A stretch of DNA of 64,000 nucleotides from positions 545 through 64,544 of the forward strand of contig CAZJJX010000006.1 in the NCBI GenBank assembly GCA_964546555.1. Reading direction: 5' to 3'. Numbering within the stretch: position 1 is the stretch's first letter; the number at the start of each line of letters is the position of its first letter. Below, piece after piece: positions 35,023 through 64,000 of the stretch. The notes below the pieces were generated by a model. It was given only the letters and a program-made list of their open reading frames with translations, did no database searches and was not told where the DNA came from. The DNA comes from an uncultured Candidatus Saccharibacteria bacterium. GTDB taxonomy: Bacteria > Patescibacteriota > Minisyncoccia > Phycocordibacterales > UBA5272. The translations under genes were made by a program, and so were the position numbers.

Positions 35023-35080
35023 GTGTGACATATTTGTTCATATGTTGATTTTTTAGTAAAAATTCAATTTTAGTTATTAT

Positions 35081-35147
35081 CCACACAATTGTGTGGTGAA
35101 TCTGTGCCAAAGTGGGGTATAATGGGGAGCAGTGGGGCAAAGTGGGA
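35081..35147 (+). promoter_or_regulatory. mraZ promoter/operator: 16-bp palindrome plus a 10-bp-phased AGTGGGG repeat array
   Basis: CCACACAATTGTGTGG (35081-35096). Then AGTGGGG 35111, AATGGGG 35121, AGTGGGG 35131 and AGTGGGA 35141, with TATAAT (35118-35123) embedded. Confidence 0.65.
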
Positions 35148-42460: not shown

Positions 42461-42540
42461 GTATTACTAACTGCTAACACTTAACCCTTAGCTTAATCAC
42501 TAGTCACTGACCACTGTATTGTATGCTATACTATACTCCT

Positions 42541-43227
42541 ATGAAAAAAATGTCACATTTCTTCCTAAAAACAACTGAAGGCAAGTTCCTTGGTTCTGTT
42601 GGTGCCGTGCTTATTGTATTACTTGGGTATTATTTTTACGCTGCACCTAGTTCGTCTACGACTAAGACAGAGGACATTGTTATTAAGCAGACTGACCATG
42701 TTCGTGGCGCAAAGGATGGCAAGGTAACACTTGTTGAGTTTGGTGATTTTCAGTGTCCTGCCTGTGCTGCATATGAACCTATTGTTCGTCAGGTGATGCA
42801 AGACAATAAAGATATCTTGAAGTTTTCATTCCGTCATTTTCCATTAACACAAATTCACAAGAACGCACTTCTTGCTGCAAAGGCTTCAGAAGCAGCAGGT
42901 ATTCAAGGTAAGTTCTGGGAGATGCATGACATGCTCTATGATAAGCAAGAAGAGTGGGGTGAAGCGCTTAATGCTCGTGAGTACATTATGATGTATGCAA
43001 CAACACTTAAGTTAGATATAAAGAAGTTTACATCTGATCTTGAGAGTAAAACTCTTGAAGATAAAATTCTCGCTGAGTTTAAGGAAGGTGTAGGACTCGG
43101 TGTCCAAGGTACTCCTACATTCTTTATCAACGGTCAGAAAGTAGAAAATAATCCTCGTGACCTTGCTGCATTTAACAAGATGATCCAAGAAGCAGCGAAG
43201 GATGCAGCTATGCCTACGAAAAAGTAA
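42541..43227 (+). CDS. DsbA-family thiol:disulfide oxidoreductase (membrane-anchored)
   Basis: N-terminal TM helix, FGDFQCPACAAYEP (CxxC), GTPTFFING (cis-Pro loop). Confidence 0.85.
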   Translation: MKKMSHFFLKTTEGKFLGSVGAVLIVLLGYYFYAAPSSSTTKTEDIVIKQTDHVRGAKDGKVTLVEFGDFQCPACAAYEPIVRQVMQDNKDILKFSFRHFPLTQIHKNALLAAKASEAAGIQGKFWEMHDMLYDKQEEWGEALNAREYIMMYATTLKLDIKKFTSDLESKTLEDKILAEFKEGVGLGVQGTPTFFINGQKVENNPRDLAAFNKMIQEAAKDAAMPTKK

Positions 43228-43730: not shown

Positions 43731-43789
43731 GTTTTAATACATAAGAGAAATTTAGTTATCCACAAGAAAATTCTTGTTGTTCTATTGCA

Positions 43790-58043: not shown

Positions 58044-58271
58044 TTAGCGACCAGCAATTACTGGTACAAAGACAGACAAGACAAAAGCAATACCTATAAC
58101 AATGGTAAGGGTGTGAAGTGTTTTTTCAGCACCTCGCTTTTGAAAAGCTGCTCCAGATCCCCCGTCCGCGCCAAAAGCACCAGAAGCGTCTGTGTTTGTT
58201 CGTTGAACGAGTACAAGCACTATTAGGAGAATCGCTAGTAAAACCTGCACAATAGATAGCAATTGAAACAT
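58044..58271 (-). CDS. secG: preprotein translocase subunit SecG
   Basis: LLIVLVLVQR.....SGAFG........F..RG.EK.L...T. ATG 58271 sits 7 nt after a TATACT hexamer. Confidence 0.8.
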   Translation of the reverse strand: MFQLLSIVQVLLAILLIVLVLVQRTNTDASGAFGADGGSGAAFQKRGAEKTLHTLTIVIGIAFVLSVFVPVIAGR

Positions 58272-58425: not shown

Positions 58426-61400
58426 CTAAGGAGTCTGTTTAAGGCGCTTTATCTCATTTACAGCAAGGGTTTTTTCTCCGTTACGCGTAGATATTTTTCC
58501 TTTAACAACTAAAGGAACATCAAGGGTAAGTAGGTCTTTATAGCGTTTGTAGCTCTCAGGAAATACTGCAACCTCGATAAATCCTGTATAGTCACGTAAG
58601 GTCACAAGACCCATTTTGTCTCCTTTTTTAGTAATCGTCACTTTAATAGCTTCTATAATAACAGCAATAGATACTTCGTTACCGTCGAGTCCATGTGAAT
58701 GAATTTTTTCTATATCAAGATTACGAGCAAGTATCTTTTCTTTCCAAGGGTCAAGAGGAAAACCAGAGACAAAGAGTCCAAGAAGTTCTTTTTCCCACTG
58801 AAGTCTTTGTTTTTGTGAAGCGGGGGCGACTTTTTTCATAACAAATGAAGATTCTGTAGGAATGTCAAATAGACTATTCTGTAAAATATTATCTTTCACA
58901 ACATGCTTATGAAATTCAAGTATGCTTTCAAGGTTTGCAAGAATCTCATTTCTTTCAGCAAAACTATCCAAGGCTCCACACATTGTGAGTGCTTCGAGAG
59001 ATTTTTTATTAAGATTCTTATGAGTTATTCGTCTAATAAAATTTTCAAATGAAGTGAAAGTTCCACCTTTTCTTCGCTCTGCGATGATTGCGTCTGATAT
59101 GTCGACCCCAAGATTTTTAACTGTGTAAAGTCCAAAACGGATTTCTTCTTTTCCTTCATTATTTGTGACAATACTGAAGCCACCTTCACTCATGTTTACG
59201 TCAGGCGGCAATACAGTAATGCCCATTCTTTTACACTCTGACACAATTTCAGAAATTTTCTCAACATCCCCACTTTCATTAGTAAGAATAGCTGTCATGT
59301 ATGCAACAGGGAAGTTTGCTTTCATATATGCAGTTTGATAAGCAACTCGTCCGTAACTAGCAGCGTGAGCTTTATTAAAACCATACGCGGCAAACGGCTC
59401 AATGAGTGACCAGAGTTCCTGACTTTTTTTTGCTGTAAGTCCATGTTCTAAGAATCCTTCCATGAGCTTTTCTTTTTGAGCTTGCATTTCTGCTGGGATT
59501 TTTTTACCCATAGCTTTTCGAAGCTTATCCGCTTCAAGCCATGAATATCCAGCAAGATGGATGGCAATAAGCATTACGTCATCCTGGTACACAATCACTC
59601 CAAATGATTGATCGAGAATTGGCTCAAGACGCTGATCAAGATAGTGTACTAGCTCTGGGTTTTGCTTACGCTTAATATACTCTGGGATCATTTCAAGTGG
59701 TCCAGGACGATACAGTGCTACCATAGCATTAATATCAAAAATCGTTGTAGGTTTGAGTTCTTTTAGAAAGCGTGTCATACCTGATCCATTTAATTGGAAG
59801 AGCCCCATTGTCTCACCTCGTGCGAGCATGGAGAATGTTTTTTCATCTTCGAGTGAAATATTTTCTATATCAACATCAATGTTATAGCGACTTTTTGTAA
59901 GCGCGATTGCATCCCCAAGAATGGTGAGGTTTCGAATACCCAGAAAGTCAAACTTAAGAAGTCCTGCATCTTCGATGGTGTACATATCATACTGAGTAAT
60001 AATTTTTCCACCCTTAGGGTCTTTTTGTATTGGAGTAAAATCCCAAAGTGGTAGTGGTGAAATAACTGTTCCAGCGGCATGAACAGAAATATGTCTCGCA
60101 CAACCTTCTACTTTTTGTGCCATGTCGAGAATATCTTGGGTCTCTCTATCTGTGTCGTATGCCTCTTTTAATTCAGGTATTTCCTCTAGTGCACCAGCAA
60201 TAGTAACAGGGAACCCTTGTTTAGGTGGGGGAATCATTTTACTTATTCGGTCTCCGACAACATAGGGATATTTCATTGCGCGTGCAACATCACGTACTGC
60301 ACCACGAGCCATCATTGTTCCAAATGTTCCAATTTGTGCAACGTTATCAATCCCGTATTTCCCGCGCGCATAATCAATAACTTCGTCACGCCGGGTGTCA
60401 GAATAGTCCATATCAATATCAGGGGCTGAAGGGCGTTCGGGGTTAAGGAAGCGCTCAAAGGGCAGTTTGTATGATATCGGGTCACATTTAGTTACTTGTA
60501 GCAAATAAGTTACAAGAGATCCTGCAACAGAACCTCTAATATTTGTCAGGATTCCATTTTCTCTGGCATAGCGAAGCAAATCGTACACAACCAAAAAGTA
60601 AGGGGAGTATCCTTTATCCGCAATAACTTTTAACTCATACTCAAGACGTACTTTTACAGCATCTGTTAGCTCTAACTTACGAATACTAAGTCCCGCATAA
60701 GCAAGATCACGTAGATCCTCATTGTAACTTTTTTTATATTCAATTGCAGGGAAAACCCACTTACCTAAAGGAATTTCTAGATCACATATGTCTGCAATTT
60801 TTAAGGTGTTCTCAAGCGCTCCAGGAACCTCTTTGAAGAGATCGGGTATATCGGTCTCAAATGAAAATGTATCCTTTGCAAAAATGTGATTATATTCTTC
60901 AAGAGAATGTTCCTCGCCATTAACCAGGTATAAGATCTTTTGTGCAGGTTTGTCGTGGTGGTTTAGATAGTGAGTATTCCATGTTGCAACAAGGGGGATA
61001 GATGTTTCTTGTGCAAATTTAATTGTTCGTCTTGTGAGTTCATCAGCATTATCTATATTTTTTTGTGGATTAATTTCAAGATAATAAGACTCTGGAAAAT
61101 TTTTTTTGTAAAAGTCTAAGCGTTTAGCTGCAAGAGTTGTATCAACCATGAGCAAATTTGTTATATCACCCCAGAGTCCACCTGAAAGCACGATAAGTCC
61201 AGACGCATAGGTGCTTAATATTTCATCTGTGAGAATAGGTGAAAGTGGATTATCTACGTTTACAATAGATGTGATTCTCATTAAGTTTTTATAACCGTCC
61301 ACATTTTTTGCAATAAGAACAAGTTGATATTTTCTGTCGTCAACCTTAATTGTAAATTCAGCACCCACAATTGGCTTAATACCTTCTTTTTTGCAAGTAC

Positions 61401-61551
61401 TAAAAAACTCAATAGTTCCGTACATGTTGCTGTAGTCGGTAAGCGCAACTGCTGGCATTGAAGCATTCTTGGCTGCCTTTATAAGATCTGGAACTTTTGG
61501 CAAAGCACGGAGAAGGGAATAGTGAGAATGGTTTCGAAGATGGATAAACAT
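58426..61551 (-). CDS. dnaE: DNA polymerase III subunit alpha (DnaE)
   Basis: PHP domain (FIHLRNHSHYSLL), PDIDMDY, GLLKFDFLG, FNKAHAASY, and an OB fold at the C-terminus. Confidence 0.95.
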   Translation of the reverse strand: MFIHLRNHSHYSLLRALPKVPDLIKAAKNASMPAVALTDYSNMYGTIEFFSTCKKEGIKPIVGAEFTIKVDDRKYQLVLIAKNVDGYKNLMRITSIVNVDNPLSPILTDEILSTYASGLIVLSGGLWGDITNLLMVDTTLAAKRLDFYKKNFPESYYLEINPQKNIDNADELTRRTIKFAQETSIPLVATWNTHYLNHHDKPAQKILYLVNGEEHSLEEYNHIFAKDTFSFETDIPDLFKEVPGALENTLKIADICDLEIPLGKWVFPAIEYKKSYNEDLRDLAYAGLSIRKLELTDAVKVRLEYELKVIADKGYSPYFLVVYDLLRYARENGILTNIRGSVAGSLVTYLLQVTKCDPISYKLPFERFLNPERPSAPDIDMDYSDTRRDEVIDYARGKYGIDNVAQIGTFGTMMARGAVRDVARAMKYPYVVGDRISKMIPPPKQGFPVTIAGALEEIPELKEAYDTDRETQDILDMAQKVEGCARHISVHAAGTVISPLPLWDFTPIQKDPKGGKIITQYDMYTIEDAGLLKFDFLGIRNLTILGDAIALTKSRYNIDVDIENISLEDEKTFSMLARGETMGLFQLNGSGMTRFLKELKPTTIFDINAMVALYRPGPLEMIPEYIKRKQNPELVHYLDQRLEPILDQSFGVIVYQDDVMLIAIHLAGYSWLEADKLRKAMGKKIPAEMQAQKEKLMEGFLEHGLTAKKSQELWSLIEPFAAYGFNKAHAASYGRVAYQTAYMKANFPVAYMTAILTNESGDVEKISEIVSECKRMGITVLPPDVNMSEGGFSIVTNNEGKEEIRFGLYTVKNLGVDISDAIIAERRKGGTFTSFENFIRRITHKNLNKKSLEALTMCGALDSFAERNEILANLESILEFHKHVVKDNILQNSLFDIPTESSFVMKKVAPASQKQRLQWEKELLGLFVSGFPLDPWKEKILARNLDIEKIHSHGLDGNEVSIAVIIEAIKVTITKKGDKMGLVTLRDYTGFIEVAVFPESYKRYKDLLTLDVPLVVKGKISTRNGEKTLAVNEIKRLKQTP

Positions 61552-62385
61552 ACAATTTAACTATTACGAGATAGATATATAGCAACTAGTTTAGCAGAGT
61601 AATTTGAAAATGCAGTATTCAAAATGTGAAGAGGCGATAGTCAAAAATAAAGTGTACCTTTATATGAAATAGAACGCTCTATACAACATTTACATTGTCG
61701 TGGTGGATTACATACAGTCTCTCCGCATCAATTATATTTATGGATTTTAAAGATAAAATAACTATTAGATGATGCAGAACATTTAATACTACATTTTTAA
61801 ATCAACAAATATTTAAATATTAGAAAATACGGAATAATAAACTAAAAAATAAGTAATAGCATAAAACGTAAGTAGGGTGTCACCTAAAGCTTAAAATAAT
61901 AAAGCGTCACGGTTACAAATTTAGATCATGATTGATCTATATAGTTTTAAATTATCTTCTATTACAATCATACTAATTTATTGGTAAGCAGCAAAAAATT
62001 GGGTGTTCTAATTATTTTTAAATATTCCATTTTACATTTTATTTACAATGTATTTTAACTATTAGGTTTATTCTAATATAATTGGTATTTTATTTCTGCT
62101 TTTGCATTACCAATAAATTTGTTCTCTATTTGTTTTGATTTCATTTTGGTTATTTTTATATTTTGAATAAAATTATATTTTAAAAATCGGTCATTAGTAG
62201 ATTCTAAAAATTGTTGCTTTTTTGATTTAATTTTTAGTCATATTTTAGATGTATTGTTTTGTGCCAATTTTGTATTTATTACTTTTTAAAATAAGGTTTT
62301 TCTAAATGTACTTTATCCACAATTTTTTCACAGTTTAGTATGTACTTAAGCAGCATTTTTACTATACTTATTTACATATAAATTC

Positions 62386-64000
62386 ATGCAAGATTTTTGT
62401 AATCGAATCGCTCGTACATTGTCTATGGCGTTAGCCGTATACCTCATACAGTCTCTCTCACTCTCATCTGTGTATGCGGCGGTTCTTACTGCTGATCTTC
62501 GTTCTTCAGTGCCACAAAAGAATATCGCTCTTGTTGTAAATCTTTCTGTGTCTGATGTTGCTATCGCGAACGCTTCTTTCCTTGGTGGTCCTGTACGTGT
62601 TGTTGAGACTGCAGGGGTAGCAATTGTTCCTACTGCTTTTACAGAAGCTCTTAATGCTCTTACATCTAGTATCTCTAGTTCGGTGTTTTCAAAAAATAAG
62701 TATATTACTTCTACCGCAAATAATTATGGCTCATTTATTAAGCCAACGGTAACTCTTCCTTCTACTAGTTTTGTAGATCTTGTTGGTAGTCAACTATTTA
62801 TTTCAGCACAGAACGTTAAGGCTGATTCTCTTATTAATCAAAACCCAAAAAGTAATTTTGCCGCTTTTGATAAGATTTCTCTAGCTGTTTATTGTGATTC
62901 ATCGGCACTATTTACTTCTGTAGATGTTGATCGTTGTAATTATGAAAAGCATGCTCTTGGTTTAGTTACAAAAAATAGTGCCAATACTTCATATTCATCA
63001 TCTACGATCTCTACAGAGGTTAACCCTCCTTTTGCCTACAATAGTTCATCGACCCAACCAACGACTATTGTTTACTTAACAACAAGTACCACCACATACA
63101 TTACTAGGTATGTTAATGTTCCTGGTCCGGCAGGCAAAGATGGACGAGATGGTAAGGATGGTGTTAATGGGAGGGATGGTTATTCTGGAGGAAACTTCTT
63201 CTCAATAGCAAACACAACCTCAAGTGGAGGTTCTTCTTCATTTACATCTGGTTCAAATATTACTCTTTCTAGTACTACACTTAATGGTGCGAGCCTATTT
63301 AATGGTGATGCAATTTTTAATAGTAATCTTACTGTTTACGGCACAACAACACTTGCAACCACCACTTTTAATGGAGGTGTAACCGCTGGTAACCTTACTG
63401 TAAACAATATTACTGTCACAGATTCTGCTAACCTTGCCACAACAACAATCAGTAATCTGCAGATTGTTGGAGCTCTCTACGACAGTTCGAATTCAGGTGG
63501 TTCATATGGCCAGGTTCTTGTAAGCAACGGTACTTCTACCTTCTGGGCAAATGCAACCGGTACAATTATCGGAGGTTCAGCAACAGGTTCTATGTTCTTC
63601 TGGAATGGGACAACATGGGTTGAAAATACGAATCTTTTAACAGATTTAAGTGGGAACGTAACAGCAAACGGAGATCTTACTATTAATGGAGATTTCTCTG
63701 TTGGAAGTACAACAATTGGTAATTTAAACGCTGGAACAACAACTATTGAAAGAGCAATAATTTCTAATGCAAATATTACTTTTGCTACTTCAACAAATCT
63801 ATTTTCACAGATACTAAGCGTATCTACGGGAACTATTGGTGTTCTTAATGTATCTACTGGAACTGTTATTAATCTTAATGCAAACAGTGCTTCGGTCGGT
63901 ACTTTGTATATTGGGGACAGTACTTCAACAAATGCATACATTAATAGCTTGGTTACCACAATTGTGCAAGCAGTTAATGCAGTTTTTGATAACTTAACCG
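62386..64000 (+). CDS. large secreted surface protein with a collagen-like segment and tail-fibre-like repeats (3' partial; runs off the window)
   Basis: I translated by hand from ATG 62386 to the window end with no stop (538 codons). It has a signal peptide (SMALAVYLIQSLSLSSVYA/A), GPAGKDGRDGKDGVNGRDG at 63124-63180, then N/T/G/S-rich beta-type repeats including SGGSYGQVLVSNGTSTFWAN. Confidence 0.7.
   Translation, partial: MQDFCNRIARTLSMALAVYLIQSLSLSSVYAAVLTADLRSSVPQKNIALVVNLSVSDVAIANASFLGGPVRVVETAGVAIVPTAFTEALNALTSSISSSVFSKNKYITSTANNYGSFIKPTVTLPSTSFVDLVGSQLFISAQNVKADSLINQNPKSNFAAFDKISLAVYCDSSALFTSVDVDRCNYEKHALGLVTKNSANTSYSSSTISTEVNPPFAYNSSSTQPTTIVYLTTSTTTYITRYVNVPGPAGKDGRDGKDGVNGRDGYSGGNFFSIANTTSSGGSSSFTSGSNITLSSTTLNGASLFNGDAIFNSNLTVYGTTTLATTTFNGGVTAGNLTVNNITVTDSANLATTTISNLQIVGALYDSSNSGGSYGQVLVSNGTSTFWANATGTIIGGSATGSMFFWNGTTWVENTNLLTDLSGNVTANGDLTINGDFSVGSTTIGNLNAGTTTIERAIISNANITFATSTNLFSQILSVSTGTIGVLNVSTGTVINLNANSASVGTLYIGDSTSTNAYINSLVTTIVQAVNAVFDNLT

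Follow-up and report, generated by a model that had tools for sequence, protein, structure and literature searches.

A dnaE-adjacent Patescibacteria gene encoding a candidate exported modular adhesin fibre

The DNA analysed here, called the window throughout, is a stretch of 64,000 nucleotides of contig CAZJJX010000006.1 (assembly GCA_964546555.1), deposited as part of the genome of an uncultured Candidatus Saccharibacteria bacterium, and at its end the first part of a large gene starts divergently from dnaE. From the ATG at 62386 to the last base, 64000, frame +1 holds no stop, i.e., it is open over 538 codons, as the first-pass annotation of this DNA had stated, and each of the other five frames contains 10–64 stops across the same interval. 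We consider it rather probable that these 538 codons are the beginning of a much longer gene, which belongs to the chromosomal core of Patescibacteria (Candidate Phyla Radiation, CPR) and encodes an exported trimeric modular adhesin fibre. The features of the locus are collected in Table 1. The frame is missing from the list of open reading frames (ORFs) made for the window because this list leaves out ORFs running off the sequence end, and the only ORF listed for the stretch lies on the opposite strand and had been regarded as its antisense shadow. Stop-free antisense runs of uneven length, 77–241 aa, are present in all homologous loci and the plus frame has homologues at E 5.5e-123; the antisense ORF is indeed a compositional by-product of T/S/N/G-rich coding and not a gene.

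Table 1. Coordinates of the fibre gene, its parts and its surroundings within the window (aa, residues of the fibre protein; identities, means to the aligned homologues)
Feature	Position	Strand	Basis or remark
SecG	58056-58271	-	upstream neighbour
dnaE, divergent neighbour marking the conserved locus	58426..61551	-	Pfam; synteny
Conserved promoter/regulatory region	62275..62385	+	near-invariant in 8 syntenic loci; ~115 nt before ATG
Perfect DnaA-box consensus TTATCCACA	62313..62321	+	73 nt upstream of ATG
Putative core promoter	62341..62368	+	TGTACTT 62341-62347 (-45, -35-like), 15-16 nt spacer, TATACT 62363-62368 (-10-like)
Fibre gene, 5' part (538 codons)	62386..64000	+	open frame; homologue P0001 E 5.5e-123, also P0002-P0005
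Signal peptide, possibly a signal anchor (aa 1-31)	62386..62478	+	mean identity 56%, 77% in closest relative
Hypervariable N-terminal region (aa 32-150)	62479..62835	+	mean identity 19%
Cys block FDKISLAVYC-x13-CNY (aa 151-190)	62836..62955	+	mean identity 43%
Variable S/T/N-rich linker (aa 191-232)	62956..63081	+	mean identity 19%, gaps 19%
Conserved strand TTYITRYVNVPGP and 8 Gly-X-Y triplets	63082..63195	+	strand (aa 233-246) 66%, collagen run (aa 247-268) 62%
First T/N/S/G-rich fibre segment (aa 271-345)	63196..63420	+	composition; short beta strands in low-confidence AF2 model; mean identity 42% (aa 269-345)
One copy of the 78-aa GQVL/WNG module (aa 346-415)	63421..63630	+	HMM; mean identity 63%
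Antisense ORF, 160 aa, not a gene	63477..63959	-	sole ORF-list entry for the stretch
Start of long T/N/S/A-rich repeat region (aa 416-538)	63631..64000	+	holds 30-nt unit in 2 copies at 63820-63880; mean identity 30-41%

Beyond secG the minus strand continues with genes for a family-5 solute-binding protein (SBP), RNase J, a transporter of the major facilitator superfamily (MFS) and an RluA-type pseudouridine synthase. Twenty related loci from Patescibacteria assemblies were compared with this arrangement, 18 loci besides that of the window being counted as syntenic, and the order RluA-MFS-RNase J-SBP-SecG-DnaE, followed by the divergent fibre gene, was found by tblastn or among called genes in L001–L003, L005–L016 and L020, of which L015 is short and shows DnaE only; the upstream flanks of L021–L024 did not enter the gene-order comparison, and L004, L022 and L025 are too short upstream. 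The remainder of the window has a housekeeping content as well, including the genes for DnaB, CysS, MreB, two penicillin-binding proteins, a UvrD/PD-(D/E)XK helicase-nuclease, RmuC, YchF and others, and it encodes no paralogue of the fibre protein. The genomes carrying the relatives are labelled Candidatus Saccharibacteria, Paceibacterota or Gracilibacteria. Since their DnaE proteins are 74–89% identical among each other, such labels cannot all be accurate and Patescibacteria/CPR is the safe statement of the clade.

The family is as yet unannotated. A word-indexed search returned only seven related proteins, of which the named ones are all called 'hypothetical protein' and stem from metagenome-assembled genomes (MAGs) of Paceibacterota or 'Gracilibacteria', and none of the seven carries a precomputed Pfam domain. 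A profile built from the window protein and five homologues was run against 1.84 billion representatives and collected 243 proteins at E<=1e-3, including 21 at E<=1e-30. Searches of the 538-aa protein in Pfam, NCBIfam and PDB sequences gave no fitting family. Judged from the alignments, a dnaE-adjacent fibre family can be defined by a signal peptide, the pattern [LF]DxxSLxx[YF]C-x13-16-C, the strand YITxYxxVPGP and a (GXY)4-9 run, together with a gene that stands beside dnaE of the RluA-MFS-RNase J-SBP-SecG-DnaE block and is transcribed divergently from it; the window protein shows this sequence pattern, and its gene has that position.

The RNase J and DnaE neighbours are 75–92% identical to those of the window and the fibre protein only 31–51%, showing that the fibre evolves far faster than its surroundings. 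Identities for the single segments (Table 1) are means between the window protein and 14 aligned homologues. The N-terminus, MQDFCNRIARTLSMALAVYLIQSLSLSSVYA-AV (hyphen at the presumed cleavage site), starts with a basic n-region, which is followed by a hydrophobic core, where the Kyte-Doolittle mean over 11 residues rises to 1.75, and by the sequence VYA-A; by inspection it fits a Sec signal peptide with putative cleavage, in agreement with the signal peptide proposed in the first-pass annotation. The signal sequence (MQD[LF]R.RI.RTLSM….YLIQ.LS.STVYA) is kept at 56–77% identity compared to 19–28% for the mature N-terminus, which is unusual for a plain Sec leader; the segment may stay in the membrane as an anchor or serve as a dedicated signal for targeting. 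The hypervariable region following it reaches only 28% identity even with L007, although the DnaE proteins of L007 and the window agree at 88.7%.

Three cysteines had been counted in the N-terminal region, which are found at residues 5, 170 and 184. Unlike Cys5, which is part of the signal region and not conserved, C170 (codon 62893-62895) and C184 (codon 62935-62937) are invariant in the 14 aligned members, as are the D, S, L and Y of the Cys block, and the two probably form a disulphide loop. The window also carries the gene for a DsbA-like thioredoxin (42523-43227), which makes an extracytoplasmic C170–C184 disulphide plausible. The alignments give the family consensus sequences LDxxSLxxYC…CNY and YITxYVxVPGP, and a regular-expression scan of 16 members, i.e., the window protein and 15 others, found the [YF]C-x13-16-C block followed 50–80 residues on by 4–9 Gly-X-Y triplets in every one of them (16/16). 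The collagen-like run of the window protein reads GPA GKD GRD GKD GVN GRD GYS GGN; it starts at 63124, as noted earlier, and its end has to be moved from the reported 63180 to 63195, resulting in 8 triplets. The run is not due to chance, since its place in the protein is shared by all 16 members and its Gly columns do not vary. Invariant in the alignment are moreover the Y, I, Y, P, G and P of the strand preceding it, and strand and collagen run together probably set the register of a putative trimer.

The repeats rich in N, T, S and G that had been described downstream of the collagen-like run are borne out by the composition of aa 270–538 (T 18%, S 13%, N 13%, G 11%), a region which holds 12 N-x-S/T sequons, by a rough estimate about the number predicted from composition. 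The motif SGGSYGQVLVSNGTSTFWAN highlighted in the first-pass annotation is present at residues 369–388 and turns out to be part of a conserved module. A hidden Markov model (HMM) of window aa 350–432 found 251 copies, spread over 94 retrieved proteins with at most 19 in any one and with a period of ~78 aa, and their consensus, …TGxLxDxxGxxGxxGQVLxSxGTSTxW…GTxTxSTLxWNGxxWVEN…, contains three invariant Trp residues. Copies are also present in P0008, P0011, P0012, P0016, P0019 and others. P0008, with 19 copies, is encoded on a chromosome (L019) that also carries biotin-carboxylase, GMP-synthase and folate genes, therefore its genome is probably not a reduced CPR genome. No model of the module exists in Pfam, NCBIfam or PHROGs; it is an undescribed tandem repeat of many giant bacterial proteins. 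An AF2 prediction for aa 345–432, made with 40 aligned copies, reached a pLDDT of 75.7 and suggests two beta hairpins, one across GQVLVS/NGTSTFW and the other across FFWNG/TTWVEN. With this model, a Foldseek search of viral models (BFVD) gave a single match at E 6e-4. The matched protein, from Synechococcus phage S-SRM01 (35% identity), is uncharacterised and lies in an unannotated genomic neighbourhood; the further matches are weak (E 0.01–0.5, TM ~0.35) and are named tail fibre, S74, tail collar, Mtd-N and the like.

Complete homologues were found on three contigs and measure 1358 aa (P0013), 1525 aa (P0015) and 4335 aa (P0014). The earlier view of a large exported repeat-rich protein cut by the window edge fits these lengths, and the gene appears to be much longer than its part inside the window. 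P0014 (MFA5132027.1, 'hypothetical protein', Ca. Paceibacterota) is encoded on a 559-kb contig, and both P0014 and P0015 lie in the syntenic position with an RNase HII gene inserted between dnaE and the fibre gene. P0013 (L004) likewise follows an RNase HII gene and has the shared downstream genes NusB-NUDIX, RNase III and FtsJ/S4, its contig ending before dnaE. The ends of the three proteins differ: P0015 closes with LVIVD beta-propeller repeats, P0013 and P0014 with a different domain and a long Pro-rich (Pro/Thr/Val-rich) tail, and the C-terminal domain of P0013 has no match in PDB or Pfam. The full-length members carry 2–17 GNVGIGTTxP motifs, a motif often found before S74 domains. Peptidase_S74 itself (PF13884) occurs among the matches only in the more distant relative P0021 (1946 aa, NCBI, on a 195-kb contig), in which an HTH/transposase-like N-terminus precedes a fibre-family match starting at residue 271; P0021 probably results from two genes being called as one or spans the junction of an insertion sequence.

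All other contigs (17/17) end inside the still-open ORF, after 511–910 codons. Twelve of them come from GTDB-species genomes and five from JGI metagenomes, and L014 and L024 may represent the same organism. In the complete 13-kb gene (L003, P0014) dispersed direct repeats of 100–230 nt, 72–92% identical, begin ~1.46 kb after the start codon, and the first sign of repetition in the window is the duplicated 30-nt unit. Due to these internal repeats, perhaps together with strain variation, short-read assemblies stop inside the gene. The fibre gene is thus a systematic assembly break point, affecting 17/20 related contigs, and its full length is hidden in most MAGs. The source contig was absent from the collections searched: the DnaE of the window has no identical entry on record, and neither the genome nor the metagenome contigs contain the 42-mer 63899-63940 as an exact match. 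The window contains no direct repeat of >=40 nt, and hypermutation of the type driven by diversity-generating retroelements was discarded as an explanation since no template/variable repeat pair is visible in it.

Upstream of the ATG a region of about 115 nt is near-invariant in eight syntenic loci and the rest of the dnaE-fibre spacer is not alignable among loci. The conserved region contains the sequence TTATCCACA, which we take to be the DnaA-box consensus; 17 of the 20 homologous loci have it, at -72 to -74, and in the window a TGTACTT repeat (62307-62313, -79) directly precedes it. The element TTTACTATACT, around -23, keeps a fixed position even in the distant loci L003, L004 and L020. 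By inspection a putative core promoter can be assigned within the region (Table 1), which a generic sigma-70 scan did not report, and its position implies a very short leader that would lack an obvious Shine-Dalgarno sequence. A riboswitch or leader RNA as cause of the conservation was rejected, as Rfam has no match upstream of the fibre gene and no conserved RNA structure is predicted there (4 invariant pairs, -1.3 kcal/mol).

Only three perfect DnaA boxes exist in the 64 kb (35077-35085, 43756-43764 and 62313-62321), all on the plus strand and each 55–73 nt upstream of an ORF start, namely of mraZ (35132), of a gene for a LexA-like S24 peptidase (43820) and of the fibre gene. A 16-nt palindrome, CCACACAATTGTGTGG, overlaps the first of the three, at 35077. 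DnaA or another factor may control these three promoters as a small regulon, which we regard as a lead and not as a result. A replication origin (oriC) in the AT-rich dnaE-fibre spacer was considered and dismissed, because the spacer has one box and the boxes form no cluster, and the count of boxes with one mismatch is at chance (21 vs 20).

In more distant relatives an RNase HII gene lies between dnaE and the fibre gene (L003 9073-9711, L004 94-702, L020 7115-7756). No trace of rnhB was found in the AT-rich 835-bp spacer of the window (61552-62274), neither as ORF nor as tblastn match, nor was one found in L001, L002 and L005–L016; an RNase HII pseudogene in the spacer was rejected on the lack of a tblastn match. 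Downstream of the fibre gene, and before rpmF (L32), genes for large Laminin_G_3 (concanavalin-like lectin) proteins are found at L003 23013-25142 and L020 15006-18401. The L003 gene directly adjoins the fibre gene, and its product weakly resembles, in LamG sequence, an ORF next to the fibre-like gene of the viral contig L017. With these proteins the region may encode a further component for the surface or for adhesion.

On the reading preferred here, the product would be exported via Sec, and behind the signal peptide the conserved N-terminal module, consisting of the disulphide-loop block, the beta strand and the short charged (GXY)8 run, would bring three chains into register. It would be followed by a long T/N/S-rich, beta-structured fibre with one or more of the 78-aa two-hairpin modules and, as seen in the complete homologues, by interchangeable C-terminal domains. 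The fibre would project from the cell and act most likely as adhesin for a host cell or another surface, its exposed parts diversifying fast and its internal repeats recombining. The architecture of N-terminal module, collagen run, repeats and swapped C-termini fits, together with the fast divergence, a surface adhesin. Hints of a trimeric fibre are the fixed place of the (GXY)n run, the beta hairpins in the module model, the best Foldseek matches, which are weak and belong to trimeric adhesins and viral fibre/S74 proteins, and a match of the P0013 C-terminal region to a tail-fibre PHROG. Several observations speak against it. Surface location, trimer and binding are predictions from sequence only, the hypervariable segment at the N-terminus would suit a distal head no less than a proximal anchor, and the collagen run is short and lies below the Pfam cut-off (PF01391 Collagen has no match in the window protein and reaches 10.6–17 bits vs a cut-off of 27.2 in homologues). 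The AF2 model of all 538 aa, built on 6 sequences, is uninformative (pLDDT 32), and Foldseek found nothing significant for the module model in the PDB, where the top rows BadA, AtaA, Bd1334 and HylP have E>2 and are not evidence. Moreover, inspection by eye of the C-terminal ends of the complete homologues revealed no wall-anchor motif, and the window ends before the C-terminal part that would hold any binding domain.

Among the other explanations, the same fibre might be mounted in reverse like the streptococcal Scl and M proteins, i.e., with aa 32–150 as distal head, the collagen stalk beneath and the C-terminus in the wall, which is conceivable but rather unlikely. That aa 32–150 are the most variable part at 19% identity would suit such a head, the Pro/Thr/Val-rich tails of P0013 and P0014 resemble wall-spanning regions, and the only NCBIfam match of the window protein is to the Scl2/SclB model, but it covers the collagen run only and scores 15.8 vs 325 bits. 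Against a reversed fibre, no LPXTG-like signal or C-terminal membrane segment was seen by eye in the complete homologues, the C-termini are swapped wholesale among orthologues (LVIVD propeller vs others), which is more typical of distal tips, and MAT (mosaic adhesive trimer) and phage fibres are attached by their conserved N-terminus (PMC10769870). By analogy, the MAT and phage fibres together with the swapped C-termini favour attachment at the N-terminus. A structural component of the envelope, e.g., an S-layer-like coat, a sheath or a spacer fibre, whose divergence would come from phage or predator pressure or from weak constraint, is improbable. The single conserved core locus, the strongly conserved promoter and the housekeeping neighbourhood would be in keeping with it, as would the T/S/N-rich composition, which is common in surface-layer glycoproteins; however, a length of 1358–4335 aa and interchangeable C-terminal domains including an LVIVD beta-propeller are unusual for a lattice protein, and no S-layer family matched.

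A conserved N-terminus with mosaic C-termini at one locus is also what a polymorphic toxin or contact-dependent effector would show, in which the N-terminal part would be the delivery filament, the variable C-termini the toxins and an immunity gene would follow each of them; in L004 a small unknown ORF in fact overlaps the stop codon of P0013. However, none of the full-length members contains a toxin, Rhs, haemagglutinin-repeat or pre-toxin domain, and the downstream genes vary (Laminin_G_3 protein, TatC/TatA, unknown ORF) with no recurrent toxin-immunity pair, making this a very improbable explanation. The first-pass annotation had itself named a prophage tail fibre as alternative, and a prophage or phage-derived gene would explain the resemblance to viral fibre proteins. 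At the level of motifs this resemblance is real but thin, and it does not extend to family membership: PHROG matches of the window protein, to tail proteins and weak (E 0.003–0.05), are confined to aa 238–287, i.e., the collagen run, and the module alone reaches phrog_4120 at E 0.014. A scan of IMG/VR viral contigs gave one confirmed relative, a 1520-aa fibre-like ORF on a 94-kb contig, whose N-terminus …GSNGQVLTSNGTSTYW shows 46% identity across 59 aa, and the C-terminal region of P0013 matches the tail-fibre family phrog_19602 (E 6e-6). Against a phage origin, the module has no significant tblastn match in 50,697 phage genomes (best E 0.3), no phage genes were found in the 64-kb window or among the genes downstream of the fibre gene in the complete loci, at 0.35 the GC content of the last 2 kb hardly departs from the 0.36–0.38 of the neighbouring 2-kb bins, and the protein has an N-terminal signal peptide. 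Because the order RluA-MFS-RNase J-SBP-SecG-DnaE and fibre gene is conserved across the loci, the prophage alternative is rejected and keeps a next to negligible probability; the gene is chromosomal, and the likeness to phage fibres supports similar parts and not membership.

How the ultra-small Patescibacteria recognize and hold their hosts is largely an open question, and for the adhesin fibre preferred here a conserved single locus encoding a fast-evolving giant fibre with interchangeable ends makes a concrete candidate for host specificity that can be put to the test. The invariant promoter with its DnaA box might serve as a handle on regulation in Patescibacteria, of which, to our knowledge, almost nothing is known. 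A more far-reaching proposal, which we put forward tentatively and with considerable doubt, is that the gene is the founding example of a Patescibacteria-specific host-attachment fibre, in which a single core dnaE-adjacent gene would combine parts like those of phage tail and MAT fibres, the tips would be swapped between lineages for host range, and expression would be tied to replication via the DnaA box at -73.

In the literature searched for collagen-like or fibre adhesins of CPR bacteria, no description of this dnaE-adjacent family was found, and the CPR attachment structures it covers are mainly type IV pili and, recently, Pam pili. With phage tail fibres and tailspikes the family shares a short (GXY)n tract ahead of a beta-rich fibre and the GxxGQVLxSxGxxxxW element, which is N-terminal also in the 1520-aa ORF of the 94-kb viral contig; the best viral fold matches are fibre/S74-type proteins, and the phrog_19602 match of P0013 belongs here as well. 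It differs from them in that the window gene has no phage context and has a Sec signal peptide, in that its product has no significant PHROG match outside the collagen run, and in that the module is without a tblastn match in the phage genomes. With the streptococcal Scl1/Scl2 proteins and other collagen-like adhesins of bacteria it has in common the signal peptide, a variable N-terminal region, charged Gly-X-Y triplets with KD/RD pairs, which could form a triple helix free of hydroxyproline, and presumably the location on the cell surface. Scl proteins carry much longer Gly-X-Y runs, compared to only 8 triplets here, where in addition the bulk of the protein is non-collagen fibre and no LPXTG was seen by eye in the complete homologues; the match to the Scl2/SclB model NF038329, the sole one in NCBIfam, stays with 15.8 bits far below its 325-bit cut-off and does not leave the collagen run.

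In its design the nearest system is that of the MAT fibres of Bdellovibrio bacteriovorus, a comparison by analogy (Caulton et al., 2024; PMC10769870). MAT proteins consist of a signal peptide, a conserved beta-rich N-domain of ~130 aa presumed to be proximal to the cell, a trimeric beta-helix and S74 or non-S74 tips (PMC10769870). Both sets of genes are chromosomal genes of a bacterium living on other bacteria, and both encode a signal peptide, a family-specific conserved N-domain, a long fibre and interchangeable C-terminal tips; S74-ending versions occur among the MAT proteins and S74 is found here in one distant match, P0021. The NCBIfam model NF053851 (Bdello_MAT_N) has no match to the window protein at E<=1 and hits only the distant P0007, weakly (7e-5, 22.6 vs a 60-bit cut-off). 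The capping-loop motif of MAT fibres, V-G-G/N-pi-x-x-P-x-x-x-L, is absent here, a regular-expression search finding no copy in the window protein, P0013, P0014, P0015, P0034, P0006 or P0021; the GNVGIGTTxP motif of the full-length members is similar to it but shifted. The N-terminal module here has the Cys-x13-Cys block and a collagen run, and collagen is not mentioned in the MAT paper (PMC10769870). Furthermore, as far as visible there is one conserved locus per genome here vs 21 MAT paralogues, and the sizes here reach 4335 aa. The MAT proteins are nonetheless the precedent for a phage-fibre-like adhesin in a bacterium living on other bacteria. Beside them, the dnaE-adjacent protein would be a phage-fibre-like modular surface adhesin of already known general design with a new N-terminal module, restricted to a Patescibacteria clade.

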